From NCBI GenBank assembly GCA_016928115.1, contig JAFGLI010000022.1, positions 560 to 64,559 on the forward strand: a stretch of 64,000 bases of DNA. Direction: 5' to 3'. The position numbers and the translations under genes are program-made. This document shows positions 2,798 through 52,042 of the stretch, one piece after another. How positions within the stretch are numbered: the first letter of the stretch is position 1; the number at the start of each line of letters is the position of its first letter. This DNA comes from Candidatus Woesearchaeota archaeon (GTDB lineage Archaea; Nanobdellota; Nanobdellia; Woesearchaeales; UBA9642). Under the pieces are notes generated by a model that had not been told where the DNA came from, ran no database searches, and saw only the letters and a list, made by a program, of their open reading frames with translations.

Positions 2798-2890
2798 TTT
2801 TTCTTATTTTATTTTTATCCTAATTTAATTTTTAAAGAATATTTTGCAATATAGAAAAATATTTAAAAATTCATATTATTAAAAGAAAAA

Positions 2891-3223: not shown

Positions 3224-3384
3224 AAAAATCCTACTACGCTCATCACAACCCCACACTTTGTATGGGAACGTGGTAAGCTAAGTCTGGCCATGCCATGATT
3301 GCCAAAAAACAATCAATGACATTCACGGCACAGACGCACTTTTTCAATGCAACTGAGGAAAAAGAAAACATTAATAAATGAAAT
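3196..3384 (+). repeat. Repeat cassette copy 1: A-rich coding tail + stop, ~140-nt structured core, conserved 3' flank 'attaataaatgaaat'
   Basis: Aligns by eye to 18905..19113 across the full length with few substitutions. Differences are concentrated in predicted loops. Confidence 0.6.
3214..3353 (+). ncRNA. Candidate structured RNA/DNA element, copy 1 (unknown family)
   Basis: 14-bp terminal stem: gttgcattgaaaaa (3214-3227) pairs with tttttcaatgcaac (3340-3353). Internal helices: cccaca/tatggg, gtctggcc/ggcacagac with a 1-nt bulge, tgattg/caatca. Visibly GC-richer than its surroundings. Coding polarity unknown; the + strand follows the upstream gene. Confidence 0.45.
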
Positions 3385-3411
3385 AAGATAACAAAAAACA
3401 GGGTATTTAAA

Positions 3412-4038: not shown

Positions 4039-4051
4039 AGGTGAACTACTA

Positions 4052-5524
4052 ATGGAAGAAACAGAAAAACTCTTGCAGTTTTTGCAAAAAGAAGGTTTCA
4101 TATGGGGACCTGAGCCTGAAATCTATGGAGGAAAAGCAGGTTTTTACACCTATGCGCCCATGGGAAAATTATTGAAAAATAATGTTGAAAATTACATAAG
4201 AAAACACTTTCAGGAGGAAAATTTCTGGGAAGTGGAATGCCCAACAATAATGCCTAAAATAGTGTGGAAAGCATCAGGCCATTTAGACAGCTTCACAGAT
4301 AAAGTCGTGGAATGCAAAAACTGCAGCTCAAGCTTCAAGGCTGATGAGTTTGTGGATGAGATAAATGTAAAAGACCTTAAAAAATTCTTTAAGGAAAAAA
4401 AGATAAAATGCCCTAACTGCGGCTCTGTCTTAAGCCCTGACTTAAAAGAGCATAATCTGATGATGAAAACAACCATAGGCTTAGATGAAGAAGCATATTT
4501 CAGGCCTGAAACAGCCACAACAACATACCTTCCATTCAAAAGGTATTACGAGCATTTCAGGAAAAAATTACCATTCGGAGTATTTCAGATAGGAAAAGCC
4601 TACAGGAATGAGATAAGCCCGAGAAAATCCCTGATAAGGCTCAGAGAGTTTATACAGGCAGAAGCCCAGATGTTTATATTTGAAAAACAGAAAAACTCAT
4701 TTAAAAAATATGAGAAATACAAGAACCTTAAGATTCCTTTGCTGCCTGAAGAAGCCCAGGGCAAAAAAGAGCAGGCAAAGAAGATAACCTTAAACGAGGC
4801 TTTGAAGAAAAAACATTTCAAGAGCAAAGCCTATGCTTATGCAATAGCCTTAACCTATGAATTATTTAAAGGGTTAGGCATTGAGGAAAAGAACATAAGG
4901 TTCAGGGAGCATCCATCGGCAGAAAAGATATTCTACGCATATGAAGCATGGGATTTAGAGGTTAAGCTCAATACATTCGGATGGACAGAGATGGTGGGAG
5001 TGCATGACAGGACTGATTATGACTTAAAGCAGCACCAGAAATTCTCAAACCAGCCAATGTCTGTATTTAATATTGAAAATAATGAAAAAGAAATACCTAA
5101 TATAATTGAGATAGCATTCGGCTGCGACAGGCCCATATATGCACTGTTTGACCTGTTTTATGATGTGAAAAGCAGGGAAAAGGGTAAAACTATATTTAAG
5201 GTTCCTGTTCATCTATCACCTGTTAAAATAGCTGTCCTGCCTTTGGTAAACAAAGATAAGATTCCTGAAATGGCTGAAAGCATCTATAAAGAACTGAATG
5301 AAAACACAGACTTAACAGTAAGTTATGATGACACTGCATCAATAGGAAAAAGATATCTAAGGCAGACAATGAAAGGGACTGCCTTATGCTTAACAGTTGA
5401 TTATGACTCACTGAAAGACAAAACAGTTACTTTAAGGGAAAGAGATACAGGAAAGCAGATAAGAGTAAAAAGAAAAGATATTATTGAAAAGGTTAATTTA
5501 TTCTTAAAGAAAGGGAAGTTTTAA
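4052..5524 (+). CDS. glyS: Glycyl-tRNA synthetase (class II, archaeal/eukaryotic alpha2 type)
   Basis: N-terminal 'IWGPEPEIYGGKAGFYTYAPMG' and motif 2 'FRNEISPRKSLIRLREFIQAE' match GlyRS. C-terminal anticodon-binding domain present. Contains a CKNC...CPNC Cys4 insertion. Confidence 0.7.
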   Translation: MEETEKLLQFLQKEGFIWGPEPEIYGGKAGFYTYAPMGKLLKNNVENYIRKHFQEENFWEVECPTIMPKIVWKASGHLDSFTDKVVECKNCSSSFKADEFVDEINVKDLKKFFKEKKIKCPNCGSVLSPDLKEHNLMMKTTIGLDEEAYFRPETATTTYLPFKRYYEHFRKKLPFGVFQIGKAYRNEISPRKSLIRLREFIQAEAQMFIFEKQKNSFKKYEKYKNLKIPLLPEEAQGKKEQAKKITLNEALKKKHFKSKAYAYAIALTYELFKGLGIEEKNIRFREHPSAEKIFYAYEAWDLEVKLNTFGWTEMVGVHDRTDYDLKQHQKFSNQPMSVFNIENNEKEIPNIIEIAFGCDRPIYALFDLFYDVKSREKGKTIFKVPVHLSPVKIAVLPLVNKDKIPEMAESIYKELNENTDLTVSYDDTASIGKRYLRQTMKGTALCLTVDYDSLKDKTVTLRERDTGKQIRVKRKDIIEKVNLFLKKGKF

Positions 5525-6586
5525 TTATTTTAAATATCCTAATTTTTCTGAAGCTATTATAAACATTGAATGGCTCCAGCATAAAGGAGAAACAGATTCC
5601 TGAATATTATTATCAAATAACTGCTCTGGAATATATTTTTCAAATTTTCTAATATATTTTTCAAATATTTTTTTAGATTCTTCTTTTTGCCCTATTTCTG
5701 AAAGTGCAATTATATACCAAAAAGTTAAAATGGGCCAGCCTCCTCCTCCTTTCTTGCAATAAGACAAGTTTTCCACTCTTCCCCCGTATTCATCATTTTC
5801 ATATCTTTTTATTCCCTGCTCGGTTAAAAGTTTCTTTTTTACGATTTCTATAGAATTAAGAAGTTTTTTGTCTTTTTTTAATATATTAAAAGGCCAGACT
5901 AATCCTAAAACACTTGCATCAATTCTCTTATCTGGTATTTTTCCCCATAACCTGCAGTAGTAATCACCTTTAAATTCTTCAAGAGTTTTTTTCATTTCTT
6001 GACTAACTTTAAGCCATTTATTATCTCCTAATTTTTCATATGCTTTTTTTAAACCAAAACTACATGCTGCTAAGGTATAACTAAAGTTATCCTCTAAACT
6101 TGGAAATGTTCTTCTTTCTTCCCATAAATCATAAGTGTCTATGTTAAAATGTTTGCCCCCCCAGTTTTTACAAATACCATCTGCTAAAAGTTTAATGACT
6201 TCTTTGGTTTCTTTATTTAAATTTTCATTTGTTTTTGTTAATACCCATAACAAAGCTCCTGCCTGATCAGGTTGGTATTGACTTGCTCCCATATTTCTCC
6301 TTCCATGTGTGTCATATCTCTGAAAAAGCATGCCACTTTCTGAGAAATGTTCTGCTCTTGTTATAAGCCATTTAAGAAATAATTCTTTAATATTTTTTAT
6401 TCCTAATAATTCAGAAGCACATATTGTAAAAGATGCATCTCTCGGCCATACAAATCTATAATTAGTTACAGTTTTTGGATAATATGGTTTATCAGTATCA
6501 GCAGCTATAATAGCACCATTTTCTAAACTGCAATTTTTTATTACTTCTTTGCTTGTTTTTAATAAATTCTTTATTTTTTCTTCCAT
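5525..6586 (-). CDS. GH15-family glucoamylase/glucodextranase-like (alpha/alpha)6-barrel glycosidase
   Basis: 'NGAIIAA...YRFVWPRDAS' matches the GH15 catalytic-domain signature (Y-x-W-x-RD-A/S). Confidence 0.6.
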   Translation of the reverse strand: MEEKIKNLLKTSKEVIKNCSLENGAIIAADTDKPYYPKTVTNYRFVWPRDASFTICASELLGIKNIKELFLKWLITRAEHFSESGMLFQRYDTHGRRNMGASQYQPDQAGALLWVLTKTNENLNKETKEVIKLLADGICKNWGGKHFNIDTYDLWEERRTFPSLEDNFSYTLAACSFGLKKAYEKLGDNKWLKVSQEMKKTLEEFKGDYYCRLWGKIPDKRIDASVLGLVWPFNILKKDKKLLNSIEIVKKKLLTEQGIKRYENDEYGGRVENLSYCKKGGGGWPILTFWYIIALSEIGQKEESKKIFEKYIRKFEKYIPEQLFDNNIQESVSPLCWSHSMFIIASEKLGYLK

Positions 6587-6722
6587 TATAATTATATATT
6601 AGAAATATAACTAATATTTAAATATTAACCAATAAGAATAAAATATATTAAAAGTTTCCAACGAAAGATTTAAATAATAAATGTAAATTTCTTATATTCA
6701 TATAAAAAGAGGTTTATTTTTA

Positions 6723-8372
6723 ATGAAAATAAATATTCTTATAGGAGGAAAAGCAGGCCAAGGTGCAAATGCAGCTGCTATTCTTTTAGGGGAAATATTA
6801 ACAGAATACGGCTATTATGTCTTTAATTACAGGGACTACCCTTCTTTAATAAGGGGAGGAAATAATTTCAATATTGTTGCTGTTTCCAACAGGAAGATAA
6901 AATCCCACGACAAAAAGGTTCAGCTAATTGTGGCTCTGGATGAGAATACAATAAAAGAGCATAAGACAGGAGTAAACAAAAACACACCTGTAATAAGCAT
7001 AAAAGATGTTTATATGGATGATAAATTCAAGAAAGTCTCAAATGTTTTTATTTTAGGGTTACTTCTTAAATTTCTGGATTTGCCTTTGGATTTACTGATA
7101 AAAAAACTTGAGGAAATATTTAAAGGAAAAAAATTCCTGCCTCTGGACAAAGAAGCAGCAGAATCAGGTTATAATGCTGACATGAAAAAGCTTAAGCTCA
7201 CAAAATCAGAGATAAACAGGCTTGACATAAGGGCTAAATTAAGAAAGCCTGCTCATAAAAATCTCAGGCTTCTTTCAGGGAGCGATGCCATTGCAAAAGG
7301 TGCCATAAAATCAGGGATTGACATTTACCTTGCTTACCCAATGACTCCGGCAACACCTGTTTTACATTTACTTGCAGGAAGACAGGAAAAAGATAATATA
7401 ACTGTATTCCTGGCTGAAAACGAGATAGCTGTGGCAAATGCAGCTTTGGGCTCATCACATACAGGAGCAAGAACGATGGTAGGAACCTCAGGCGGTGGTT
7501 ATGATTTAATGACAGAAGCAATGAGCATGCAGGGAATCTCAGAGATTCCTTTGGTTGTATACTTAGCGCAAAGGCCAGGCCCTGGCTCAGGGGTACCTAC
7601 ATATACAGGACAGGGTGATTTGAATATCGCGTTAAATGCAAGCCATGGTGAATTTCCAAGAGTTGTTATTGCGCCCGGGGATGTGGAAGAATCCATAAAA
7701 TGCACAAACGAGGCCTTTTATTTTGCTGAAAAATACAGGGCTTTATCAATATTGCTTGGGGATAAGCATGTTTCAGAATCCCAGTTTACATATGAAAAAG
7801 AGCCGAAACTGATAAAAGTCAAAAGGAACATAGACCTAAAAAAAGTAAACGGGCTTTACAAAAACTATGATTTCACAAAAAACGGTAACAGCAAAAGAAG
7901 TGTTCCTTCTGTAAATATTGTTAAGTCAACAAGCTATGAGCATGATGAAAAAGGGATTACAATAGAGGATGCTAATATGGCTAAAAAGATGTATGATAAA
8001 AGGCTGAGAAAAGAAGAAACTATGAAAAAAGAAGTCAAAAAATTCCAGACATACAAGATTCACGGCAGAAAAACCAGCAAAAACCTCATTGTGGGCTGGG
8101 GCTCAACCAAGGGAGCAATAATAGATGCTATTCATGACATGGATGCAAAATTTTTACAATTAATATACATAAAGCCATTTCCAAAGGAAGTCAGAAAATA
8201 CCTGGAAAATGCAAAAAAGGTTATTCTGGTTGAGAATAATGCAACAGGTTTGCTTAGCCAGGAAATAAGAAAGGAAACAGGCTTTGAGATTAAGGATAAA
8301 ATACTAAGATATGACGGAAGGCCCTTTGAAGAAGATATTTTAAGAGAGGAAATCAAGAAAAAATTAATTTAA
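6723..8372 (+). CDS. 2-oxoacid:ferredoxin oxidoreductase, fused gamma-alpha subunit
   Basis: N-terminal 'GGKAGQGANAAAILLGE' is a gamma-subunit motif. It is followed by an alpha-subunit domain 'SGSDAIAKGAIKSGIDIYLAYPMTPATP'. Confidence 0.8.
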   Translation: MKINILIGGKAGQGANAAAILLGEILTEYGYYVFNYRDYPSLIRGGNNFNIVAVSNRKIKSHDKKVQLIVALDENTIKEHKTGVNKNTPVISIKDVYMDDKFKKVSNVFILGLLLKFLDLPLDLLIKKLEEIFKGKKFLPLDKEAAESGYNADMKKLKLTKSEINRLDIRAKLRKPAHKNLRLLSGSDAIAKGAIKSGIDIYLAYPMTPATPVLHLLAGRQEKDNITVFLAENEIAVANAALGSSHTGARTMVGTSGGGYDLMTEAMSMQGISEIPLVVYLAQRPGPGSGVPTYTGQGDLNIALNASHGEFPRVVIAPGDVEESIKCTNEAFYFAEKYRALSILLGDKHVSESQFTYEKEPKLIKVKRNIDLKKVNGLYKNYDFTKNGNSKRSVPSVNIVKSTSYEHDEKGITIEDANMAKKMYDKRLRKEETMKKEVKKFQTYKIHGRKTSKNLIVGWGSTKGAIIDAIHDMDAKFLQLIYIKPFPKEVRKYLENAKKVILVENNATGLLSQEIRKETGFEIKDKILRYDGRPFEEDILREEIKKKLI

Positions 8373-21982: not shown

Positions 21983-23362
21983 ATGAACAAAGAAAATAAA
22001 TCAATAAAAACAATTAACGAGAAGAGGGAATATGAAATATTATCTTCTATTGTAAATAATAATTTCCCAAAATATATAGTTGATATAGGATCTAATGATG
22101 GCATTAACTTATCTAATTCATTCCCTTTTGTTAAAGAAGGATGGCAGGCTTTATTAGTTGAAGCAAATCCTTTTGTCTTTGATAAATTAAAAGAAAACCT
22201 GAAAAATTATCAAAATGTTACTACTTTAAATTGTACATGCTCAAATAATAATGGATATGGTCATTTATATCTAGGAAATGATGGAGAACTGGGACTGCTC
22301 TCTAGTCTATGCACCGATTCAAACCCCTGGTTTGAATATGCAAGATCTGATAAAAAGGTTCAAGTTAAAGTTAAAAAATTAGAAAGTATTCTGGATGATG
22401 CTAAATTCCCTTCTGATTTCGGAATTCTCCTAGTTGATGCAGAAGGAATGGACTTTGAGGTTTTGGAAGGCTTAAATTTTGACAGATATAGGCCAGGCAT
22501 AATTGTTACAGAAGAATATCGTCATAATCTTACAAAACATAAAAAGAAATATCAACTATTAAAAAACAAAGGATATTTATTAAAACACAAAATAAAATGT
22601 AACACAATCTGGGTTAATAAAAAACACAGTAATTCAGATTCTATTTTCAAACATTTAAATGATATGGAAAGAATTCTTCAAAAATACTTGATTCCGAAAT
22701 CATCAAGTCTTATAAAATTCGAGGATATTAAAGGTCTGTTTAACCATAAAAAATATTCTGTTGAATTAATAAAAAAACCAAAATGGGAAGATGACGCATT
22801 GATATTCAAGATTGAACCACTAACCACTGAGTTAACTTATAAGTGGTCCGTAAAGATTCATGAAGATAAATATCCTTTAGCTTCACATGTATGTGATAAT
22901 GAAGAACTTTTAAACAGAATAATCTGCTCAGACAATGCTGCAGAGATAATAAATACTTCCTGTGTAAAAGGTAAAGATATGCAATTCAGGATAACAACAT
23001 ATGATTATTTGAAAGGTAAATCCTTAGACAGTTTATTACCAGATGCATCAGACGAGACTATATTAAAACTTCGTAATGGGCTAAAAAAATGCGTAGAATC
23101 TTTATTAAAATCCGGCGTTAATGTTTTTGTCAGGGACTTAAGCGATTTCATTGTTGTTCCCAAAGGGGATGAATATAAAGTGATTCTTACAGATTTTAAC
23201 GCAATTATGGACTGTTCCAACGCAAATAAATATAGTAGAGAAAAGGTTATGGAAATTATTGGTTGTATTATAAATAAACTCGTAACTGGGGAATATAAAC
23301 CTTTTATTTCACAGAGACCTACAATGATAGACCTTGAGAGTAAAAATGATTTCAGAATTTAG
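21983..23362 (+). CDS. FkbM-family SAM-dependent methyltransferase fused to a ~270-aa C-terminal domain of unknown function
   Basis: 'VDIGSNDG' and 'LLVDAEGMDFEVLEG' match Methyltransf_21 (FkbM) motifs. The C-terminal half has 'VRDLSDFIVV' and 'LTDFNAI', which are faintly kinase-like. Confidence 0.55.
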   Translation: MNKENKSIKTINEKREYEILSSIVNNNFPKYIVDIGSNDGINLSNSFPFVKEGWQALLVEANPFVFDKLKENLKNYQNVTTLNCTCSNNNGYGHLYLGNDGELGLLSSLCTDSNPWFEYARSDKKVQVKVKKLESILDDAKFPSDFGILLVDAEGMDFEVLEGLNFDRYRPGIIVTEEYRHNLTKHKKKYQLLKNKGYLLKHKIKCNTIWVNKKHSNSDSIFKHLNDMERILQKYLIPKSSSLIKFEDIKGLFNHKKYSVELIKKPKWEDDALIFKIEPLTTELTYKWSVKIHEDKYPLASHVCDNEELLNRIICSDNAAEIINTSCVKGKDMQFRITTYDYLKGKSLDSLLPDASDETILKLRNGLKKCVESLLKSGVNVFVRDLSDFIVVPKGDEYKVILTDFNAIMDCSNANKYSREKVMEIIGCIINKLVTGEYKPFISQRPTMIDLESKNDFRI

Positions 23363-24298: not shown

Positions 24299-25939
24299 AT
24301 GACAATAAATAATAATCTTGAGGATGAAGTCAAAGAAGGTTTTATGGGAAAAATAGGCAGGAAAGCAGGCAAAATTACGGGCTTCTTAGGTTTATTAACA
24401 GCTTTAAGTCCATTGGGTTTGAAAGCATATTCTATTAATGGCAATGTTAAAGATATTCATGAACACAAAAACATGGCAGATAGAGAGGTTGTAATCAAAG
24501 ATGTTAATGATCCTTCCAGAATAAAAACTGCTTATACAGATGCAAATGGTGATTTTTCTGTTGACTGGTCATTTAACCAGGCTCCTGTAGTTTATAATAT
24601 TTCTCCTGAAAATGGTGCAACAGGGGTTTCAACAAGTCCTGAATTAAAGGTTGTTGGAACAGATGGAGATGATGATCCTTTAAGCATAGAATTCTATAAA
24701 GCTTCAAATGACTCTTTAATAGGCTCGGATAATATTCAAAGCGGCGATACTGCTTCTATTGTGTGGAATAACTTAGATGAATCTACATTATATGAATGGT
24801 ATGTTAAAGCTGCAGATGGAGAAGATACAACCACAAGCAATAAATGTAATTTCACAACTGAATCTAGTGGAGGAATAACTGAGGAAGAGAAAAACAAGAT
24901 AGATATATTCGGAGAAGATAATATTTTAAAGGTTATTGGGGATTATGATGATAAATTTGAAGGAGACATTCTTGATGCTAATGGAAGGAAAGTCGGAGAA
25001 TTAGAAGAAATCATGGGCTCAGAATATGGCTTTTCTGTTTCAAAAGTTCCTCAGGGAGTTTACTTTATGATTTTAAAAAGAAATGGAGAGAATATTGCCC
25101 AAGTTAAGTTTTTAGATGTGGAAAATAAGGTTTTTGGAGTCAGCCCGAAATGGAATATTGAAGAAGATAATGTTTCTTCATCTGATTCATATAAAAAGGA
25201 AACTAACTCTTCAAATGAAAGAACAGAAAGTTTAAAATTAAGAAGTACTAAATTAGACAGTCTGGAATTCCTTATAAAAGGAGATTCAGGAACATGGGAA
25301 AGAGTTACATACAGAACAGCCAATCCTGATGAAACCAATAATTATGATTTTAGTGTTATAGATAAAACTATTTTTGACAGCACCATGATGGATTTTTATA
25401 ATGAAATTACTGGAAGGGGAACGGAATTTGGCACAGCAAGATGGGTTTTGGACACAATACAATATATGGTTGATACAACAGATATGTCACAGGCAATGAT
25501 TAATACTATTGTCTCAATAATTAATGATGAGGTTATTTATATGACTAACAACCAAATAACACCTGTAATTAATTTTACAAACACCCACCCTGAACACTAC
25601 TACGGCGCTGATACAATCAATATTTATGTAGATAATGATATACCTGGAATGGGAGAACATAGTGAAGAATCAATAGAAGGCTATGATAACAATGATTACA
25701 CACTGGAAACAGCTTATGTTAAATTAGTATGTGGTGACTATCTTTACAGGGGAGTAATCTTACAGGAAATACTTCAGACCTTAGGCTGGGTATGTGACTC
25801 TGACCTTGAAAACAGTGTTTTTAATGGAAGTTCTGCCTCACATTATTTAACAGAAGCAGATTCATTATCAAGAATTCTATATTTGAGAAATCCCAAAAAC
25901 ATATATCCGGATGAAGATTCCAAGCCAGAAGGATGGTAA
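24299..25939 (+). CDS. Secreted multidomain surface protein (546 aa; true start probably the internal Met at 24344 before the signal peptide)
   Basis: Signal-peptide-like 'MGKIGRKAGKITGFLGLLTALSPLGLKAYS'. Carboxypeptidase-regulatory-like domain 'VVIKDVNDPS...TDANGDFSV'. FN3/Ig-like segment. A beta-sandwich resembling T9SS-type sorting domains, 'GVYFMILKRNGENIAQVKFL', sits mid-protein. C-terminal ~250 aa are unknown. Confidence 0.5.
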   Translation: MTINNNLEDEVKEGFMGKIGRKAGKITGFLGLLTALSPLGLKAYSINGNVKDIHEHKNMADREVVIKDVNDPSRIKTAYTDANGDFSVDWSFNQAPVVYNISPENGATGVSTSPELKVVGTDGDDDPLSIEFYKASNDSLIGSDNIQSGDTASIVWNNLDESTLYEWYVKAADGEDTTTSNKCNFTTESSGGITEEEKNKIDIFGEDNILKVIGDYDDKFEGDILDANGRKVGELEEIMGSEYGFSVSKVPQGVYFMILKRNGENIAQVKFLDVENKVFGVSPKWNIEEDNVSSSDSYKKETNSSNERTESLKLRSTKLDSLEFLIKGDSGTWERVTYRTANPDETNNYDFSVIDKTIFDSTMMDFYNEITGRGTEFGTARWVLDTIQYMVDTTDMSQAMINTIVSIINDEVIYMTNNQITPVINFTNTHPEHYYGADTINIYVDNDIPGMGEHSEESIEGYDNNDYTLETAYVKLVCGDYLYRGVILQEILQTLGWVCDSDLENSVFNGSSASHYLTEADSLSRILYLRNPKNIYPDEDSKPEGW

Positions 25940-25953
25940 TCTAATTCTTATTT

Positions 25954-28812
25954 TTAAATTATTTTAACAGGGAATTTGTGATACTCATCATCACCAAAAA
26001 AATCTGTTGGATGACAGCTATATGTTATTTTCCCTCCGCTATAAGTGAAACAATCATTATCCGCCCACCATGCTGTTGTAAAAGGAGTTCTATCACAACC
26101 TTGGCATTCAGCAGCATCTACACATTTAACGCCATTCCAATATTGGCCACTTGGACAGCATCTTCCATAAGTGTCTGGGTCAAGAGGGTTATCTCCCTGG
26201 GAGCAGTAGGCTTCATCATCAGGAGAGGAATATGAAGTATCTCTGACAGCTCTGTTTACACCAGGAGGTTGTTTACCACATACTGCAGATTTCTTGTTTG
26301 TAGAAGTTACTTTTTTATAACAATCCTCATCTCCACAATCTATCTTACCATCATTATCATCATCTATGCCGTTGTTACAGTTTTCTCTAGGGAACCATAC
26401 AGGGTCTGATGAATCATACATATCATACCATTCACTAAATCCTTCAGTCATGGTCTGGACTCTTACAGTCATGGCTAATGCCTTATTATAAAAATCATCA
26501 TTAATGTTTGAAAGAGTAAAGGTTTTTGTACATCTATAAGTATATCTTCCTCCACTAGTGCCTGTGCTTATACAGGGCATTTTATCAGGAGTATCAGTAT
26601 CATAATAGCCATTGAAATAAACAGTATCTGCAGTAGTACTGGTTTCCCATGCCCTTGTTGCTTCACAATTTCCAAAATTACATTCACCTGCCCATATAAA
26701 GGCAGATATATAATCTAAAGTATTCATGGTTGAACTTATATCACATCTTAATGTTACACTTTCACCCGGAGCAAAGAATCCATTAGTAATTGAACAGGAT
26801 TCAATAATTGGTGTCCTATCACAATAACTACCACTATAATCCTTAATCCATCTCCATCTGCCCCCTTCATAAACACAAGTGTAATCATCCAATACATTAC
26901 ATTCTGTTCCACTGTAACATCTTTCTTCACATCCCCTGGTACTATCACAATCTAAATAATCAATATCACACCTGAATGTACATGAGGACCTTGATAATAT
27001 ACATCCTGGGGGAGTAGAGCTTTCACACTGGTCATAATAATCAGGCCAACACATTGGTTGGTCATAAAGCCCTTCACATCCGGACCCGCCGGAAGGGGAG
27101 CCTGTACATCTGCAAGTGCCATCAACACATGAGCAGGAATTTGCAGAATACAAGGAATATTCACAATAATTATTGTAAGGGTTTGCATGAGAATAATGAG
27201 GATTTTTTACATCCGGAACATTTATTTCACAACTGGCACAATCCGTATTCCCTGTACATGGGCCTTCAACAGGAACACCATATATAGGATATATATCCCC
27301 GTAACAAAAACCCTCAAAAGAGTTTTCACAACAGGCAGTTCTGGGAGCTGAAAAGGTTTGCCTGCATGTAATATCACAAGGACTAATGCCATCACAGTCA
27401 GGATCATCACAATCATATAAATTATCACAGTCATTATCTATTCCGTCTGAACAACAATTACCATAATATGAACAAAAATCATTTTCAGTTTCAGTTCCAC
27501 ATCTTCTATCTGAAGTTAAATCACATTCATTCCAGGGTGGACCACCAGCATTAGGCCTTGTGCCTCCACAACCATCTGTAGTGTCACATTCATTATAATA
27601 CTCACAGGAAACACAAGGACTAATGCCATCACAGTCAGGGTCATCACAATCATATAAGCCGTCGCAATCATTATCAGCACCATCATCGCAATTGGTTTCT
27701 GTGGAAGGAACACTTGTTGTCCACTTCCAATCACCACTGTTGGGCTTTACACAAGTATAACCATCTTTATTATTACATTCTGTTCCACTGTAACATCTTT
27801 CTTCACAACCATCATCATAATTATAATTACATTCAAGATAATTATCATTGCAACTGAACTGGCAGTTCCCGCTGTCTAAGTCACAAGTAGGTTTTGTTCC
27901 CCCCCTACAGTCGGGATCCCAATCTCCATCACATCTACATTTTCCACCTTCACACATACATGTTCCAACACGGCCTTGTTCATAATAACAACTGCTTGAA
28001 ACTAAATCAGTATTAGGAAAACCAGGATCTGAACCAGAGCGGCTACCACATGAATAACAGTCATAAGTATTATAACAATTATTATCAGATGCTGAATTAT
28101 AGCAAGAGGTACTGTAAGAATCAGCACAACACACATCATCAACTACAAAGTCTTGCCTGCATCCGCAATTACAATCAGGATCTTCAATACCTGGTTTACA
28201 ATCTATTCTGCCGTCGCAGTCATTATCTACGCCATCACCACAATTGGTTTCAGGGTCTCCCTCCCTATGTTCACAGCCATTATCCCAATTATCATCACAG
28301 TTTTGCCAGCCGGATTGACATTTAACATTTACAACTAAACATCTAAGAGGATCTGCTCCTAAGAGAGGATCAGGCCAATGCCATAATCTATATCTTGTAT
28401 AGCCCTCAGGTAAATGATTAATTACATCATCAGAACACGGACCAGTAAGCACATCGTAACTAACATGAACACCAGATTTTGCAAACGCTTTAGTGCATCT
28501 TGCAGTATTGCCCCCACCAATACAATTACCAATATCACAAGTAAGCAAACTGATTCCTAAGTCTGGGGAAGAAAGTGAATTACACTCGCTCCTATCATCA
28601 TAAAAATAATATCCGGATGGGGTTGTAATCTGGCTCAGACAATCAGATTCTGAACATACCCCACAATCACTCCAACCAGTATAGATTTTAAACAAAGCAG
28701 AATCTCTGCATAACTCTGATCCTGCCGCACTAACAAAACCAATTGAAAACATAAACATAATTATTACAATTATAAAAAACAACATCTTTCCTTTTATTTT
28801 ATTTAATTTCAT
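25954..28812 (-). CDS. Giant secreted cysteine-rich protein with MopE-like putative metal-binding repeats (952 aa)
   Basis: Signal peptide 'MLFFIIVIIMFMFSIGFVSAAGS'. More than 100 Cys residues. Repeated 'G(A/I)DNDCDG(L/R)xDCDDPDCDGISPC' and 'NCNNGIDDDNDGKIDCGDEDC' motifs. Internal duplicated modules 'GCEERCYSGTECN'. Confidence 0.65.
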   Translation of the reverse strand: MKLNKIKGKMLFFIIVIIMFMFSIGFVSAAGSELCRDSALFKIYTGWSDCGVCSESDCLSQITTPSGYYFYDDRSECNSLSSPDLGISLLTCDIGNCIGGGNTARCTKAFAKSGVHVSYDVLTGPCSDDVINHLPEGYTRYRLWHWPDPLLGADPLRCLVVNVKCQSGWQNCDDNWDNGCEHREGDPETNCGDGVDNDCDGRIDCKPGIEDPDCNCGCRQDFVVDDVCCADSYSTSCYNSASDNNCYNTYDCYSCGSRSGSDPGFPNTDLVSSSCYYEQGRVGTCMCEGGKCRCDGDWDPDCRGGTKPTCDLDSGNCQFSCNDNYLECNYNYDDGCEERCYSGTECNNKDGYTCVKPNSGDWKWTTSVPSTETNCDDGADNDCDGLYDCDDPDCDGISPCVSCEYYNECDTTDGCGGTRPNAGGPPWNECDLTSDRRCGTETENDFCSYYGNCCSDGIDNDCDNLYDCDDPDCDGISPCDITCRQTFSAPRTACCENSFEGFCYGDIYPIYGVPVEGPCTGNTDCASCEINVPDVKNPHYSHANPYNNYCEYSLYSANSCSCVDGTCRCTGSPSGGSGCEGLYDQPMCWPDYYDQCESSTPPGCILSRSSCTFRCDIDYLDCDSTRGCEERCYSGTECNVLDDYTCVYEGGRWRWIKDYSGSYCDRTPIIESCSITNGFFAPGESVTLRCDISSTMNTLDYISAFIWAGECNFGNCEATRAWETSTTADTVYFNGYYDTDTPDKMPCISTGTSGGRYTYRCTKTFTLSNINDDFYNKALAMTVRVQTMTEGFSEWYDMYDSSDPVWFPRENCNNGIDDDNDGKIDCGDEDCYKKVTSTNKKSAVCGKQPPGVNRAVRDTSYSSPDDEAYCSQGDNPLDPDTYGRCCPSGQYWNGVKCVDAAECQGCDRTPFTTAWWADNDCFTYSGGKITYSCHPTDFFGDDEYHKFPVKII
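26897..27817 (-). repeat. Intragenic repeat: 35-nt identical cores at 26897-26931 and 27783-27817
   Basis: Both encode the duplicated 'EERCYSGTECN' module of the Cys-rich protein. Confidence 0.6.
27375..27657 (-). repeat. In-frame duplicated module: ~46-nt near-identical cores at 27375-27420 and 27612-27657, 237 nt apart
   Basis: Both encode 'YDCDDPDCDGISPC'. The 79-codon spacing indicates tandem domain duplication. Confidence 0.6.
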
Positions 28813-28818
28813 TTTTTA

Positions 28819-29703
28819 TTATTCCCACACAGCCACTATTAACTTAACGGGCTGCTCATCCAGTTTAACCAGTCTTTTGTATTGTATTAGATTTTTTATA
28901 TTTGATGATGAAAGTTCAACCATGAAATAAGGCTTTATATAAGGAGTGCCTTCACAGCAGTCTAAGTATATGGCATGAGTATCATTGCCAGGAATATTTA
29001 TTATGACAGTAGAGCCTTCTTTCCGGTTCATACATAATTCACTTGCATTTATATAAACTCCCTCATATGTTTCATCAAAGAAATCACAGTCTCCATCATC
29101 AAAACTCAAACCCTGGCAGTCAGGGTTGCACCTGTTCTGTGAATTTGTGCAGTCAGCATGGCATGTTCCATTTGTCAATATAAAATTTTCTGTATTTGTT
29201 CCTCCTGTATTTATCAGAACCTGTTTTATGACAGTATCATAGCCTTCCTTAACAGCCCTTACATAATGGTTCCCGCTTGGCGCTGTAAGCGAATAAACCC
29301 CCCCGCCGTCGCTGTAAGTTTTGTATTCTGAACTGCCTGCAAACAAGGATATTTCTGCTCCTATTATAGCTATGCCCGGGTCAGAATCATCAGAAACAAC
29401 CCCGCTCAATAATCCCATACAATCCGGGTCAGGGCAATTTGAGCAGTCTGCTGCCTTTCCTGTAGATGCGTCCTTTATTTTCTCAGGACAGACACCATCA
29501 TTTTCACCGCAAAATATATAATTATAACTATTGACAGTTTTCCTGTATATTCCGCTGGGATTTGTTACATTTACACATCCGCACCCTGCATCATTATCAG
29601 CCTCAACACCGTAAATGGGGTTCGTAAGTGCGAAAACATAATAAAGAGATGAACATAATACTAAGAATGCGAATATTCCTAAAAAAACCCTCTTTTTTCC
29701 CAT
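28819..29703 (-). CDS. Secreted cysteine-rich protein with carboxypeptidase-regulatory-like domain (294 aa)
   Basis: Signal peptide 'VFLGIFAFLVLCSSLYYVFA'. 'ISLFAGSSEYKTYSDGGGVYSL...HYVRAVKEGY' matches the CarbopepD_reg pattern. About 24 Cys residues. Confidence 0.55.
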   Translation of the reverse strand: MGKKRVFLGIFAFLVLCSSLYYVFALTNPIYGVEADNDAGCGCVNVTNPSGIYRKTVNSYNYIFCGENDGVCPEKIKDASTGKAADCSNCPDPDCMGLLSGVVSDDSDPGIAIIGAEISLFAGSSEYKTYSDGGGVYSLTAPSGNHYVRAVKEGYDTVIKQVLINTGGTNTENFILTNGTCHADCTNSQNRCNPDCQGLSFDDGDCDFFDETYEGVYINASELCMNRKEGSTVIINIPGNDTHAIYLDCCEGTPYIKPYFMVELSSSNIKNLIQYKRLVKLDEQPVKLIVAVWE

Positions 29704-29754
29704 TGTTTCAAAATATGAATGTTATTATTTATAAATTTTTCTTATTAAAATAAT

Positions 29755-30777
29755 TCATTTATCAGGATAAGCTTTTTTGACCAGGTCTTTTTTATTTTCA
29801 AGCCTTTTTCTTACGGGCTTAATTATATCATTTATTTCTTTTGAAACTGCTTTCTTTAAATCAAGCGGGTGTAATTTATGATTCTTAAAATCTTTCTCAA
29901 GTTCAGCATAATCCTTATATATCAAATCCCCACCAAATTTTTTATCCCTTTTTACAATAAACTCATCATTAACCATAAACAGGACATTCTTTACAAACAA
30001 AAGAATCCCGTTATCCTTTGTTTCGCCTGCCTTGCAGTATGACCTGTTTATTTTTTCATCAACCTCTTTTTCTGAATCCAAAAGCCCGATCTTTGAGCCT
30101 GTATCAGAAGCACTCATCTTCCCGCCTTTTAAGCCGGGCAATAAAGGCGTGAAAACGCATGTCGGCTTATTATAGTTCAGTTTAGGCAATATCTCTCTTC
30201 CAAGCATATATATCCCTCTCTGGTCAATGCCTGAAAAACAGACATCGGCCTTCAGGTAAACAGGATCCAGCACCTGCATCAAAGGATATACATAACCTCC
30301 TAATTTAGGGTCATCCTTGAACCTCACAACTTCAGCTGCTGCCCTTCTTGCCCTTTTTAATGTAACCTCTCCCATAAGGTGCAATAAATCCATCTGGTAC
30401 TTCTTATCAAGCTGAAAATCAGAGCCCCTTACAAACTCAAGTTTTTCAGTTTTTATATTCAATGACTCAAGCAAAGCCTTTACTGTTTCCTTATAATACT
30501 CTGCCCTCAGCTTCAACAGCTCCCACGGGCTTTTCATGTCATCCAGAAAAGCATGCAGGTCAGCTATTAAAAACTTAACATTAAACCCTGCTTTAAGAAA
30601 ATCCCCTATCTTAATTATGGGGAATATGTGGCCTACATGTAATTTACCTGTGGGGGCATAGCCTATATAAGCAGAGGGAATTTTCTTTTTCAGAATATCT
30701 TTTAATTCATCATCCTGAACAGTTTCCTCAGTATTCCTTTTTATTAATTCAAACTTTTCATTTAAATCCATATTCAA
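29755..30777 (-). CDS. tyrS: Tyrosyl-tRNA synthetase (archaeal type)
   Basis: 'AYIGYAPTGKLHVGH' (HIGH) and 'KMSAS'. Near-collinear with the M. jannaschii TyrRS as recalled from memory. Confidence 0.88.
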   Translation of the reverse strand: MNMDLNEKFELIKRNTEETVQDDELKDILKKKIPSAYIGYAPTGKLHVGHIFPIIKIGDFLKAGFNVKFLIADLHAFLDDMKSPWELLKLRAEYYKETVKALLESLNIKTEKLEFVRGSDFQLDKKYQMDLLHLMGEVTLKRARRAAAEVVRFKDDPKLGGYVYPLMQVLDPVYLKADVCFSGIDQRGIYMLGREILPKLNYNKPTCVFTPLLPGLKGGKMSASDTGSKIGLLDSEKEVDEKINRSYCKAGETKDNGILLFVKNVLFMVNDEFIVKRDKKFGGDLIYKDYAELEKDFKNHKLHPLDLKKAVSKEINDIIKPVRKRLENKKDLVKKAYPDK

Positions 30778-30968
30778 TAAACCCTCAATAGTGTATTTTA
30801 CTATTTATTATTTAAATATTTTTATTTACCAGCAACCAATAAAACAAAAAATTTAAATATTAGGGATAATAAACAATATTGCTGAAATAAACATTCATTC
30901 AAAAATGACAAATTTCAGGAGGGTTTATTATAAAAAATTAGACTGAATAATAAATATGGTGATAAAAA

Positions 30969-31229
30969 ATGGAAGAAGAGAAAAAATTTTCTAAAAAACT
31001 AATGGGAAGGACTATTGTCAGCAAAACAGGAAAAAGATTCGGTGAAGTCGGGGACATTATATTTGAAACACGTTCCGGAGAACTGATACATCTTGTTGTG
31101 GACAAGCCAACCACATACACTGAAAAACTTCAGCTTGAAAAAAACAAAAACGGAGAGATACTCATACCTTTTTCAGCAGTTATTGCAGTGGGTGACTTTA
31201 TTGTTGTTGCTGAAGAAGAAATTATTTAA
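30969..31229 (+). CDS. PRC-barrel domain protein (86 aa)
   Basis: 'VSKTGKRFGEVGDIIFETRSGELIHLVV' matches the PRC-barrel pattern. Confidence 0.5.
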   Translation: MEEEKKFSKKLMGRTIVSKTGKRFGEVGDIIFETRSGELIHLVVDKPTTYTEKLQLEKNKNGEILIPFSAVIAVGDFIVVAEEEII

Positions 31230-31236
31230 TTTTTTA

Positions 31237-31911
31237 TTATTTGCTTAATATTTCTTTGACATAGTCAAAGTTTTCTTCATATATGTGCGCGGAAGAGGAT
31301 ATAGTTGTAATCTTTCCTTTCTTAAGGCTTTCATCATATTTTTCCCCGTCTATTAGCTTGTCTGCTACATATTCATACAAACACACTAACTGAAATATAT
31401 TTGCGGGCCAGCCTATAAAAAACTCATTGCTTCTTATGAATAATGTAAGATTTAATTTTTTATCCCTTATCATGAAATGAAGATTCATAAGGCTGGGCAC
31501 TGAATCTTTGGACATATCCAGATCAGTTAAGGGATTGAAAAGAGAAATCACGGCTCTTCTTGAGTGAAGGGATTTTTTTAAAAGAGGTATTACCCATGAA
31601 TGTATCTGGTCTTTCCTGTTCTCAAAATTAAATATTCTCGGGCCATATGTAAAGCCGTAAATGCCTGCAGGCTCTTTTTCAATGATTAAATTTTTAAGCT
31701 CTTTTTTATTAGGATAAACCCATTTTTTAAAACTATTTAATATATCTATTGGCTTGTCAGGGTCTTTCAGGGGATTATTTATCTCAACAACCATATTAAT
31801 CAGTTCCTTGAATATCCTGCCGTCATTGTCAGGCAAAGAACTCCCTTTATTAAGAATCTGCTTAAGCCCTTCTCTCCATCCATCCATTATTGTTTCTGAT
31901 TTTATTTCCAT
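31237..31911 (-). CDS. Thymidylate-synthase-like protein (ThyA fold, 224 aa), apparently lacking the canonical catalytic Cys
   Basis: 'SRRAVISLFNP' aligns to ThyA 'RRxIxSAWNP'. 'SNEFFIGWPANIFQLVCLYEYVA' aligns to 'RSxDxxLGxPFNIASY'. At the expected P-C-H position the sequence reads 'VPSLMNLHF'. Confidence 0.5.
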   Translation of the reverse strand: MEIKSETIMDGWREGLKQILNKGSSLPDNDGRIFKELINMVVEINNPLKDPDKPIDILNSFKKWVYPNKKELKNLIIEKEPAGIYGFTYGPRIFNFENRKDQIHSWVIPLLKKSLHSRRAVISLFNPLTDLDMSKDSVPSLMNLHFMIRDKKLNLTLFIRSNEFFIGWPANIFQLVCLYEYVADKLIDGEKYDESLKKGKITTISSSAHIYEENFDYVKEILSK

Positions 31912-31915
31912 TTTA

Positions 31916-33508
31916 TCATTTAATAAAATTTTTTAGTGTTAAATTGGACTCCCTTTTGCTGAAATCATAGCAAAAGAAAGGTATGTTATAGCTTTTGAGT
32001 ATGAAGCTTAATTCATGGATTATCTCTTTAGGATAAATATTCCCTGCCCTGAAAAACCTTATCCTGTCACCCCCGTCAAAAACATTCAGTATTTTTTCCC
32101 TTGTCTTTATGAAATCATTGAACTCCGGCTTCTGAAAATCATTTATGTTGTGCAAGGTTGTTTTTGCGTATGTCCTTTTGCTCAAAAATTCATCGCCGTA
32201 GTTATTAAATATGCTTGAAAATGCAATCCTGAACCTTATTGGTATGCCGCAGCTTTTGAATACAGCTTCCTCATCATAACAGAACTCATTTATTTTCTCC
32301 TTGCAGCTTTTAATTAAATCTATCATAAGTTCCTTCTGCTCTTTCCAGTCATAATTCCAGAACCTTATGTAATTCCTGTTGTACTGGTAAAAGCCCCGAA
32401 TATTGGACTTGTTGAGCTTGTTTATGTCACCGAAAAACTCAATAAATTTTCTTCTCTGGATGGTATTCGCTGAAACCAGCGACCTTGCTATTGACATAAT
32501 GAAATCCCTGAACTCATTATTGGTTTTGTATTTCTGGAAAAACCTGTATACATCAGCAGCAACAATGCATTGTGCACATGCTAATCCAATAAGGGAATCA
32601 TCCTTTTCCTGAGCATATTTCTCCCATTCTTCCCTGTCAAAAACATAAACCCCTGTCTGTCCAAAAAAACAGGGTGAAGGGGATATTCCAGTATTATTTA
32701 TATTTAATTTTATATTTTTTTCATGAAATAGTTCGATTGTTTTTTCAAAAAAATCAGAATAACTATGCAAACTTTTATCATCTATATTAAATATAACTTC
32801 CAGATTATCGCTCCTGAACCTTGAAAATATATCGAGAAAAGCCAAAACCTTGTTTTTGTCATGAATATTATTGAAATTTATTATTATATTAATGCATCTC
32901 CCATAATCCTCTGCATCTATTGCAATCCTCTTTATGAAATCAGTTATTTTTTCTTCAGGATTATTGAAAATAAAATACTCAAAATTATTAAATGCGATTG
33001 CATCATTAATATTTGAGATTGTTTCCTGCATAGCAGAATACAATAAAGAAAGACTCTCAAAATTCTCGCATTCTATTAAAACAGCATTCAGCTTGCTTAT
33101 CCAGGAATCCCCTCCGAACCTCAACAATATATTCTGGCTTTCATATTTTTCCATGGGCATAGAAGGCAAAGAAGTCTTCTTTATAAACACCCTTTTCCTG
33201 TTTTTTTCAATGACATATTCTCCTTCATCAATATTAAGAGAAAAAACCTTCTCTCCCTTGCCCTGGATGCTGGTTACTTTAAGAATATTATCATCAACAA
33301 GTTTGTTTAAATGATAAAGAATCATTCTGTGCAATCCTGCTTTTTGCTTTTTGGCTTTGGCTTTTTCTTCCCTGTCAGTGCTTTTTAATTTTTTTTCTAT
33401 GCTGGCATAATCAGAAGAGAATAATCTGGATATGATTTCATGGGTGGAAATATTCATATTGGGTTCTTTCTTAAAAAGTTCAAGGATTGAATGTTGAATA
33501 TCCCCCAT
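31916..33508 (-). CDS. Large hypothetical protein with N-terminal winged-helix DNA-binding domain (530 aa)
   Basis: N-terminal 'ISTHEIISRLFS...LHRMILYHLNKLVDDNILK' is wHTH-like. The rest is unassigned. Confidence 0.45.
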   Translation of the reverse strand: MGDIQHSILELFKKEPNMNISTHEIISRLFSSDYASIEKKLKSTDREEKAKAKKQKAGLHRMILYHLNKLVDDNILKVTSIQGKGEKVFSLNIDEGEYVIEKNRKRVFIKKTSLPSMPMEKYESQNILLRFGGDSWISKLNAVLIECENFESLSLLYSAMQETISNINDAIAFNNFEYFIFNNPEEKITDFIKRIAIDAEDYGRCINIIINFNNIHDKNKVLAFLDIFSRFRSDNLEVIFNIDDKSLHSYSDFFEKTIELFHEKNIKLNINNTGISPSPCFFGQTGVYVFDREEWEKYAQEKDDSLIGLACAQCIVAADVYRFFQKYKTNNEFRDFIMSIARSLVSANTIQRRKFIEFFGDINKLNKSNIRGFYQYNRNYIRFWNYDWKEQKELMIDLIKSCKEKINEFCYDEEAVFKSCGIPIRFRIAFSSIFNNYGDEFLSKRTYAKTTLHNINDFQKPEFNDFIKTREKILNVFDGGDRIRFFRAGNIYPKEIIHELSFILKSYNIPFFCYDFSKRESNLTLKNFIK

Positions 33509-33546
33509 TTTATTATTGGAGAGTAGTATTAATTTAAAAATGTTTT

Positions 33547-33565
33547 GTTTCAGGACTGTTTCAGG
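33547..33565. promoter_or_regulatory. Direct repeat gtttcagg x2 (33547-33554 and 33558-33565), same half-site as the palindrome at 33660
   Basis: Read directly. Lies in the divergent promoter region between the wHTH gene and the lrp gene. Confidence 0.35.
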
Positions 33566-33659
33566 AAAAATATTGCTTATAATTAAAAAAATAAAGAAAA
33601 TTAACTAAAAAACCGGAAATACTGCGAAAAATCTTATTTCATTATAAAAAATAAGGTTT

Positions 33660-33680
33660 GTTTCAGGAATTTCCTGAAAC
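33660..33680. promoter_or_regulatory. Palindromic candidate operator gtttcagg-aattt-cctgaaac
   Basis: 8-bp perfect arms with a 5-nt spacer, about 80 bp upstream of the Lrp/AsnC gene start. Confidence 0.45.
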
Positions 33681-33761
33681 ATTCAGAAAAAAATAGTAAA
33701 AAAAGTTTTAATATTTTTAAAATAATTATAGAAAAAATAAAAAAAGTTCGGGGGAATAAAA

Positions 33762-34232
33762 ATGGATAAAACAAAAGAATTACTTTTATTGAGCTACTTT
33801 AGAAGGAATGCCAGGGAAACATTGACAAAGATAAGCAAGAAAACAAAGATTCCGGTATCAACAATATTTGATAAGCTTAAAAAATATGAAGGAAATATAA
33901 TAAATAAGCACACATGTCTGATAAATTTTAAAAAATTAGGATTTAATCTTAAAGTGAATATTCTTTTTAAGCTTAAAAAAGACAACAGGGAAGACTTCCA
34001 GGAATTCCTGAAAAAGCATTCAAAGGTAAACAGTGTGTTCAGGATAAACAACGGCTTTGATTATCTTGTTGAAGGAATTTTCAGGGACATAAAAGAGCTT
34101 CAGGATTTCGGGGATGAAACTGAGAAATTTGATATTGCAGACAGAAAGGATTTTTTCATACTTGATGACATTAAAAGGGAAGACTTTTTATCAAAAGAGA
34201 TTCATCTTGAATTGATTGGCCTTAACAGCTAA
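33762..34232 (+). CDS. Lrp/AsnC-family transcriptional regulator
   Basis: HTH 'TLTKISKKTKIPVSTIFDKLKK' followed by a RAM-like C-terminal domain. Confidence 0.75.
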   Translation: MDKTKELLLLSYFRRNARETLTKISKKTKIPVSTIFDKLKKYEGNIINKHTCLINFKKLGFNLKVNILFKLKKDNREDFQEFLKKHSKVNSVFRINNGFDYLVEGIFRDIKELQDFGDETEKFDIADRKDFFILDDIKREDFLSKEIHLELIGLNS

Positions 34233-34265
34233 AAATTTATAAACCTGAAAAAGTTTTGATTATTT

Positions 34266-34994
34266 ATGGAAATAATTAGGGGAATTGATATAATAGACTC
34301 AGGATTATATATTAAGGAAGAAAAAACCCTGATTATTGGAGATATGCATATCGGGTATGAGGAATGCCTGCGTGAAAACGGGTTCTTGTTGCCGAAATTT
34401 AATTTCGGGGAAATGAAAAAAAGAGCGGGAAAGATTATTGATTTAATTGATGTAAAAAAGATAATTATAAACGGGGACTTGAAGCATGAGTTCGGGAAGA
34501 TAAACAAAGATGAATGGAGCAAGATTAAGGATATGATTGATTTTATCAGGAAAAAAGGCAAAGTTATTTTGATAAAAGGAAACCATGATGTGCTATTGGA
34601 TAAGATAGCAAAGAAAAAAGGTTTGAAGATTAATAATTATATCAAAACAGGAGATATATTGATAACCCATGGTGATAAAATTCCCGGTTTGCTGAAAAAG
34701 AAAAACCATATTAAAACAATAATAATAAGCCATGAGCATCCTGCTGTTGTATTGAAGCATGGGATAAGAAAGGAAAAATTCAGGTGCTTTTTAAAAGGAA
34801 AATGGAAAAGCAAGAACCTCATAATTATGCCGGCATTCAACTGGCTTTTTCCCGGAGCAAATCTGCTTGAAGGCAAATTCTTATCTCCTTTTCTCAAAGA
34901 AACAGGCCTGAAAAACTTTAATTTTTATATTGCAGAAAACAAATTCAACAGTGTTTATGATTTTGGCAAGTTGGGGGATTCTGATATTGTATGA
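34266..34994 (+). CDS. Calcineurin-like metallophosphoesterase
   Basis: 'IGDMHIG', 'INGDLKHEFG' and 'IKGNHD' motifs. Confidence 0.65.
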   Translation: MEIIRGIDIIDSGLYIKEEKTLIIGDMHIGYEECLRENGFLLPKFNFGEMKKRAGKIIDLIDVKKIIINGDLKHEFGKINKDEWSKIKDMIDFIRKKGKVILIKGNHDVLLDKIAKKKGLKINNYIKTGDILITHGDKIPGLLKKKNHIKTIIISHEHPAVVLKHGIRKEKFRCFLKGKWKSKNLIIMPAFNWLFPGANLLEGKFLSPFLKETGLKNFNFYIAENKFNSVYDFGKLGDSDIV

Positions 34995-50663: not shown

Positions 50664-50715
50664 ATTCAAAACGGAATTAAAAAAATTTAAAAGAAAAGAA
50701 TAAAAAAGGTAAAAA

Positions 50716-51987: not shown

Positions 51988-52042
51988 GTTTTAAAAAAAA
52001 TAAAGAATAGAATAAAACATAAAAAAGGTTTTAAAAAAAGAG

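Follow-up and report, generated by a model that had tools for sequence, protein, structure and literature searches.

The question raised by this locus is which metal, copper or calcium, is held by the acidic cysteine motifs of a 952-amino-acid (aa) protein, and what such a protein might do outside the cell. Its gene lies on the minus strand of the 64,000-nucleotide (nt) stretch of Candidatus Woesearchaeota DNA analysed here and called the window (assembly GCA_016928115.1, contig JAFGLI010000022.1, positions 560 to 64,559). The product is identical to NCBI MBN1377518.1, a hypothetical protein (JW949_04285) from a metagenome-assembled genome of a Candidatus Woesearchaeota archaeon, and is the sole member of its 90% cluster in a database of 5.8 billion proteins. 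An original prediction, made from the sequence alone, described an exported, Cys-rich and modular protein of an AT-rich archaeon with MopE-like, putatively copper-binding motifs. The open reading frame (ORF) is real, and this general description was borne out, NCBI naming the organism as Candidatus Woesearchaeota; the copper was not. We consider it probable, though well short of certain, that the protein is an exported, calcium-stabilized, disulfide-rich modular surface protein, possibly acting as a scaffold or adhesin, and not a copper protein of the MopE type. With regard to its repeats, it is a new archaeal member, with an orphan architecture, of an already curated repeat family that has a solved eukaryotic counterpart.

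The motif E-x-x-C-x-[DN]-G-x-D-[DN]-D-x-D-G-x-x-D-C-x-D-x-D-C is present in four copies, referred to as c1 to c4 (Table 1), in keeping with the several DNDCDG cysteine motifs noticed at the outset; a regular expression and a profile hidden Markov model (HMM) found no others in any ORF of the window. The exact string DCDDPDCDGISPC occurs in two of the four copies, and c1 matches motif profile A2, of whose building sequences it was not one, at 21.7 bits (independent E-value 3e-6). The consensus of 1044 motif instances in 211 collected proteins reads E-E-x-C-x-[ND]-G-[IVL]-D-[DN]-D-[G/C]-D-G-x-x-D-C-x-D-[PS]-D-C. Its position 12 is Gly in 50% of the instances and Cys in 18%, a split that places c1 to c3 in a 'DNDCDG' subtype and c4, which has Asn there, with the Cys-less subtype. 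This last copy is of the three-Cys subtype also found in teneurins and diatoms, its fourth Cys lying 14 residues downstream.

Matches of the whole protein in the databases align solely at the motif positions, and the other repeat-bearing proteins carry adhesin-type or protease domains (Big_1, Invasin_D3, trypsin). An HMMER search with aa 484-952 against 1.84 billion representatives behaved in the same way: nearly all of its 189 matches are accounted for by c4, the best 150 of the 189 covering only this copy with the exception of the protein itself and of P0062, a 207-aa fragment described below in which c4 is conserved.

The repeat is already curated in NCBIfam as NF033662 (acidic double-disulfide repeat), which accepts the protein at 51.5 bits (E 6.1e-14, four stretches) with a curated cut-off of 41 bits, and which also accepts very strongly all eight database matches scanned with it (5-22 stretches each). 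The Cys columns expected by this family are filled in the motif copies, c1 to c3 carrying one extra Cys, and all four copies share its spacing, C-x-[DN]-G-x-D-[DN]-D-x-D-G-x-x-D-C-x-D-x-D-C, and its invariant D and C columns. Arrangement and host are different. Typical members carry 5-35 tandem copies and those with a named organism are bacterial (Myxococcota/Deltaproteobacteria, Pseudomonadota, Brocadiales), whereas the present protein is archaeal and has only four copies, each standing alone among Cys-rich modules private to it.

The relationship with PF11617, the Pfam family named Cu-binding_MopE, is looser. A Pfam scan of the whole protein gave no match at E up to 1, and scans of eight sub-fragments gave solely a sub-threshold PF11617 match. 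The best isolated copy, c1, reaches 18.5 bits (E 0.0024, profile positions 12-29 of 30), below the gathering cut-off of 27 bits, and the other copies give no match to this profile; the second half of the profile (E-x-C-D-G-x-D-N-D-C-D-G) fits c1 and its first half is unmatched. PF11617 is annotated on many database proteins that share the motif, and the core motif of teneurins and diatoms was already aligned with it by Tucker et al. 2012 (PMC3278476). The profile spans only a small region of MopE and is without specificity (PMC6189053). The search with this profile that had been proposed as a check therefore came out negative for the whole protein and below cut-off for c1: the motif does belong to the same short 'putative metal-binding' module family that Pfam calls Cu-binding_MopE, whereas the protein does not formally qualify for PF11617.

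Among solved structures, the C-rich domain of teneurins (human teneurin-4 residues 834-871, 7PLP) alone matches the protein, both by sequence and by predicted fold. A phmmer search with the protein against every sequence of the Protein Data Bank (PDB) gave a single match, the 49-residue teneurin-4 C-rich domain of 7PLP, and a profile built from 80 motif instances, three of them from the 952-aa protein itself, retrieved teneurins only (twelve teneurin-2, -3, -4 and -m sequences besides 7PLP itself, which was matched at E 1.1e-9). These PDB matches are confined to the 30-residue motif. In 7PLP, determined at 1.5 A, three fully coordinated Ca2+ ions are bound by E835, D840, D843, N844, D845, D847, D851, D854, D856 and three backbone carbonyls; sites I and II are like those of thrombospondin type 3 repeats, site III is like that of LDL-receptor A modules, and the teneurin-4 ectodomain is stabilized by calcium (PMC9058538).

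Residue-by-residue mapping showed that the side-chain ligand positions of 7PLP are kept at 9/9 in both c1 and c2 and at 8/9 in c3. In c4 there are D/N swaps and the Glu is shifted by one residue, a state which is also the commonest in bacterial copies. The core consensus of Tucker et al. 2012, E-x-x-C-x-(D/N)-x-x-D-x-(D/E)-x-D-x-x-x-D-C-x-x-x-(D/E)-C, is fitted exactly by c2, by c1 with a 4-residue insertion, by c3 without the leading Glu and by c4 with its displaced Glu. Further points of likeness are the three-Cys form of c4 and the spacing between Cys 394 and Cys 400, equal to that between C857 and C863 of the teneurin domain. Structure prediction of individual modules, another check proposed with the original prediction, gave a concordant result for c2: an AlphaFold2 model of c2, based on an 80-sequence motif alignment, has a predicted local distance difference test score (pLDDT) of 85.8 and matches 7BAM, 7BAN and 7PLP only in a Foldseek search of the PDB (root-mean-square deviation 0.7 A over 29 columns, template-modelling score 0.85), a comparison of a predicted with a solved structure. 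Thrombospondin type 3 repeats and LDL-receptor class A modules are, like the present modules, short disulfide-stapled Asp-rich extracellular Ca2+ knots. Neither TSP_3 nor Ldl_recept_a gave a Pfam match at E up to 10, and the resemblance is thus one of coordination chemistry and not of family membership.

These comparisons bear directly on whether the D/C motifs could bind copper outside the cell, in a MopE-like protein that captures copper or another transition metal, as the Pfam name, the weak c1 match and the many PF11617 annotations would invite one to think. In MopE and CorA the copper is held by two His, a water and a kynurenine, and a structural Ca2+ occupies the acidic site (PMC3912023). 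Their beta-sandwich, with its copper site of two His and a Trp-derived kynurenine, has no counterpart in the 952-aa protein: there is no His or Trp in the motif copies, the protein contains 8 His in total, and neither phmmer with the protein nor the motif profile found a MopE or CorA chain in the PDB at E up to 1. The ligand set of the motif is made up entirely of oxygen donors, as is typical of Ca2+. Taken together, the lack of His and Trp in the motif, the exclusively teneurin structural matches and the ligand conservation point to a calcium knot and not to a copper site. By analogy with the teneurins, with their three Ca2+, calcium is the most likely metal of the acidic motif; the copper binding first proposed is not upheld, and we hold a copper or transition-metal capture protein to be very improbable.

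The remainder of the protein is dominated by cysteine. It contains 98 Cys (10.3% of the whole and 10.6% of the part that follows the signal peptide, close to the 11% first estimated) and 113 Asp (11.9%); CxC and CC pairs are common, the Cys number is even and every Cys lies in the mature part. The N-terminal sequence MKLNKIKGKMLFFIIVIIMFMFSIGFVSA, followed by AG, resembles a Sec signal, with a basic stretch, a hydrophobic helix at aa 7-25 and then VSA before the AG, and export would be consistent with it. This helix is the sole segment modelled with some confidence (pLDDT up to 79) when the whole protein was submitted to AlphaFold2 without an alignment. Woesearchaeota are mostly anaerobes, and the 98 Cys might stay reduced in an anoxic habitat and coordinate Zn, Fe, Ni or Fe-S, in which case the protein would be a metallothionein-like store or a redox or electron-transfer surface protein. 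Although its Cys content, its frequent CxC and CC pairs and the largely anaerobic lineage would suit such a thiolate metal binder, no metallothionein, ferredoxin or multihaem motif was matched in Pfam or NCBIfam, the Cys spacing is long and module-like and not of the clustered CxxC kind, and the one module with a structural homologue puts its Cys in disulfides. With the even Cys count, these features make thiolate coordination distinctly unlikely.

A closer relative of the gene was reached through its neighbour, on a contig (L002, assembly GCA_964594025.1) whose positions 1-7118 are syntenic over eight genes with window positions 25954-34994. Gene order is the same in both: Metallophos, AsnC, a 562-aa gene, ThyA-like, PRC, TyrRS, a 292-aa gene and then the start of the orthologue. 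The latter is cut off by the contig end; over the 180 aa compared it is 69% identical, with indels, and keeps 13/13 Cys, so that the gene is retained in a close relative and is neither absent nor pseudogenized there. Identity is 81-99% for the rest of the block (82-99% for the housekeeping genes and 81% for the 292/294-aa protein). The 952-aa gene is thus the fastest-diverging of the block, yet its Cys framework is kept, a pattern that would be expected of an exposed surface protein.

The second relative, P0062, is 59% identical over aa 738-952 and is encoded on a 924-nt contig (L001:1-924, JGI 3300031355) that covers the last ~245 codons only. Over aa 707-952 it keeps 16/16 Cys with a dN/dS of 0.27. 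At the DNA level homology sets in abruptly at the point corresponding to aa 706-707, an AT-rich spacer and a divergent helix-turn-helix gene lying upstream, and this copy has no start codon or signal peptide; it could be a 5'-truncated copy, a different architecture or the product of a chimeric contig. Genome and metagenome contig collections, scanned four times for relatives of the C-terminal part, yielded none that could be confirmed.

A singleton in so large a database, whose sole distant relative starts abruptly, could in principle be a decaying, non-functional ORF or an annotation artefact. This we find scarcely credible: an open frame of 2.9 kb in DNA of ~33% GC is not a chance occurrence, the syntenic orthologue conserves all of its Cys, the dN/dS is 0.27 and the ligand residues are kept in four motif copies. 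The composition of the gene itself also has a simple origin. Its GC content is raised (0.39), with a third-position value (GC3 0.23) among the lower ones in the genome, and the excess lies wholly at codon position 2 (0.50) because of the Cys, Gly, Ser and Pro content of the product; recent horizontal transfer was considered as its cause and ruled out, given that GC3 is within the range of the genome.

In the architecture that we favour, a calcium-stabilized and disulfide-rich surface protein, each of the four acidic modules of ~25-30 residues would chelate Ca2+ through Glu, Asp and Asn (as many as three ions in each, by analogy with teneurin) and would be stapled by disulfides. Such calcium-locked knots would form rigid, calcium-dependent joints between the lineage-specific Cys-rich modules and would both stiffen and stabilize the extracellular chain. 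The whole assembly, made together with a 294-aa transthyretin-like protein encoded just upstream, may serve as an extracellular scaffold or adhesin. The analysis shows the ORF, its motif copies and their family, the kept ligands, the agreement in predicted fold, the conservation in relatives and the rapid divergence; from these we infer export, Ca2+ binding, disulfide formation and the connector role, and the adhesion role is the least certain part.

Several points weigh against this interpretation. The calcium assignment hangs on one structural homologue of 49 residues, and the Foldseek E-values obtained with the c2 model (0.7-0.9) are not significant, the domain being too short for such values to be informative. 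The teneurin domain is present in one copy, has a CC doublet and six Cys paired 1-3, 2-5 and 4-6, and is followed by a linker and a transthyretin (TTR) domain, whereas in c1 to c3 teneurin G846 is replaced by an additional Cys and D-x-D-C is not followed by a CC doublet; the disulfide map may therefore differ. Teneurins also include EGF, TTR, NHL and YD-shell domains and have a type II membrane topology, in contrast to the 952-aa protein, in which no Pfam domains were found. Over 85% of the sequence has neither a homologue nor a usable model (the alignment-free model of the whole protein has a pLDDT of 33.6 and is unusable), and in view of this gap an adhesin or scaffold role is deduced only from the composition of the protein, its export signal and its rate of evolution. 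The C-terminal Cys-rich domain has neither a membrane anchor nor a sorting motif, so that nothing ties the protein to the surface. Finally, the formation of ~49 extracellular disulfides in a probable anaerobe is uncertain.

The missing C-terminal anchor, like the rank of the gene as the fastest-evolving of its syntenic block, would also agree with a secreted effector, that is, a knottin- or defensin-like toxin or an array of inhibitors acting on host or competitor cells, and the probably co-transcribed neighbour has a weak Defensin-like match (E 0.007). That match lies in the neighbour, however, and not in the 952-aa protein, which is large for such a role and in which no processing sites or enzymatic domain were recognized. 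The genes around it are housekeeping genes (GAPDH, PGK, TyrRS, thymidylate-synthase-like) and offer no toxin/immunity context. An effector seems to us unlikely.

If the structural reading, an exported calcium-stabilized protein, is retained, a more specific role can be formulated: a fast-evolving, calcium-dependent attachment factor, made with the transthyretin-like protein, that would hold this DPANN archaeon to its host cell. We offer this tentatively and think it rather unlikely. Were it true, the teneurin-type calcium knot, so far found in animals, algae and bacteria, would also serve cell-cell contact in archaea. The finding is in itself a further instance of a curated repeat family and not a new system. 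It places the teneurin-type C-rich module in a DPANN archaeon, inside an otherwise orphan and rapidly diverging secreted protein, and orphan secreted proteins of this sort deserve to be examined for a part in host contact by episymbiotic archaea. It also concerns annotation: the Pfam name 'Cu-binding_MopE' suggests copper, the sole structural evidence for this type of module is for calcium, and the calcium reading would alter the metal-related annotation of the 952-aa protein and of many proteins that share the motif. Literature searches on the NCBIfam repeat name and on DPANN Cys-rich surface proteins found nothing relevant.

Table 1. Features of the 952-aa protein gene and of its neighbours, in window coordinates (aa numbers refer to the 952-aa protein).
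Feature	Position	Strand	Basis or remark
Whole coding sequence, 952 aa + stop	25954..28812	minus	ORF call; MBN1377518.1
Signal peptide or N-terminal anchor, aa 1-29	28726..28812	minus	Lys-rich n-region, helix 7-25; putative cleavage between VSA and AG
N-terminal Cys-rich domain, aa 30-164, no detectable family	28321..28725	minus	Pfam, word search; 69% identical in L002
Acidic Ca2+-type motif copy 1 (c1), aa 188-214: ETNCGDGVDNDCDGRIDC-KPGI-EDPDC, 4-residue insertion	28171..28251	minus	Sub-threshold PF11617
Cys-rich module A, aa 215-366, ends in CEERCYSGTECN...W.W	27715..28170	minus	Internal duplicate of module B
Acidic motif copy 2 (c2), aa 372-400: ETNCDDGADNDCDGLYDCDDPDCDGISPC	27613..27699	minus	phmmer match to 7PLP; AlphaFold2 model
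Acidic motif copy 3 (c3), aa 451-479: GNCCSDGIDNDCDNLYDCDDPDCDGISPC	27376..27462	minus	Motif regular expression/profile; 8/9 ligand positions
Cys-rich module B, aa 480-657, paralogue of module A	26842..27375	minus	Self-alignment
Predicted beta-rich region, aa 658-808	26389..26841	minus	Low-confidence AlphaFold2 strands; no Pfam match; conserved in L001 from ~aa 707
Acidic motif copy 4 (c4), aa 809-831: RENCNNGIDDDNDGKIDCGDEDC	26320..26388	minus	Best NF033662 stretch 810-833
C-terminal Cys-rich domain, aa 832-952	25957..26319	minus	P0062 comparison
DNA repeat D3, copies 1/2	27375..27438 / 27612..27675		64 nt, 89% identity, spacing 237 nt
DNA repeat D4, copies 1/2	26873..26934 / 27749..27810		62 nt, 85% identity, spacing 876 nt
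Upstream gene of 294-aa exported protein	28819..29703	minus	Signal peptide, 16 Cys, CarboxypepD_reg (transthyretin-like) domain
TATA-box-like TTTATAAATA, candidate promoter of the gene pair	29726..29735	minus	~23-32 nt before the 294-aa ATG; suggested by sequence
Convergent 546-aa gene	24299-25939	plus	Hydrophobic N-terminal segment, 3 Cys

The segments between the motifs appear to be private to this protein. Pfam gave no match for the N-terminal domain, for modules A and B, for aa 658-808 or for aa 832-952; a word-based search found no homologues of the N-terminal domain, and the 150 best matches of the exhaustive HMMER search included none of module B outside the 952-aa protein. Modules A and B are related to one another, since the segment comprising module A with c1 (aa 191-365) is 34% identical to that comprising module B with c3 (aa 454-655), at E 5e-40. 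Recent in-frame domain duplication, as proposed in the original prediction, overstates this relationship: the same codon is used at 49 of the 72 identical residues, near the 44.4 expected from the codon bias, which is strong in this gene (TGT 84%, GAT 81%, GAA 81%, TAT 86%). The large modules are, as judged from their divergence, old duplicates and not the result of a recent duplication of whole domains.

The near-identical DNA repeats on which that proposal had been based do exist. The first (D3) contains the 46-nt core at a spacing of 237 nt, with one mismatch, and the second (D4) a 36-nt exact core encoding CEERCYSGTECN, at the spacing given in Table 1 and not at the 886 nt first stated. 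In the tract LYDCDDPDCDGISPC, 14/15 codons are identical (P about 0.0015), and in CEERCYSGTECN 12/12 (P 8e-4 for the stretch, about 0.05 after correction for scanning). Outside each near-identical tract similarity falls at once to noise, and the most plausible origin of the tracts is either short patches of a gene-conversion-like kind or strict conservation together with codon bias. Three sites, at aa 165-181, 321-337 and 615-629 (28270-28320, 27802-27852 and 26926-26970, minus strand), share a private motif, C..G[WYL]..C[DN]...GCE, which is present in 0/210 of the other collected proteins.

The stop codon of the upstream gene lies 6 nt before the ATG of the 952-aa gene, and the two genes probably form one transcription unit. 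Cysteine makes up 5.4% of the 294-aa product, in which PF13620 (CarboxypepD_reg) is matched at 37.6 bits. Distant homologues of this protein (33-36% identity) head type IV pilus-like clusters on other contigs (L003:8001-16886, L004, L005, L008). These clusters encode a pilin-like protein that begins with MDNKRGQAAIEFL, along with a T2SSE ATPase and two T2SSF proteins, which weakly links the family to cell-surface structures. No homologue of the 952-aa protein was found in those clusters; in the window and in L002 the 294/292-aa gene is followed by the 952-aa gene instead of pilus genes. The string DCSNCPDPDC (aa 86-95 of the 294-aa protein, before its transthyretin-like domain), considered as an echo of the teneurin succession of C-rich and TTR domains, was set aside when the motif profile gave no match; it is kept as NCGSCPDPDC in a 33%-identical homologue.

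The convergent 546-aa product, which may be exported too, gave weak sub-threshold matches only (Por_Secre_tail, Big_5, DUF2927, CarboxypepD_reg). With its 3 Cys it does not complete the cluster of three secreted Cys-rich proteins originally described at 24299-29703, in which only the 294-aa protein is Cys-rich besides the 952-aa protein. Rfam and tRNA scans of the window gave no matches. Elsewhere in the window, the gene at 21983-23362 (plus strand) encodes an FkbM-type methyltransferase domain (aa 34-199) joined to ~250 C-terminal residues without a Pfam match, and positions 49431-59578 (plus strand) hold a group of glycogen and sugar-nucleotide genes: a GT4 glycosyltransferase, GH57, a glycogen synthase and GalT-like, nucleotidyl transferase and amylo-1,6-glucosidase-like genes.

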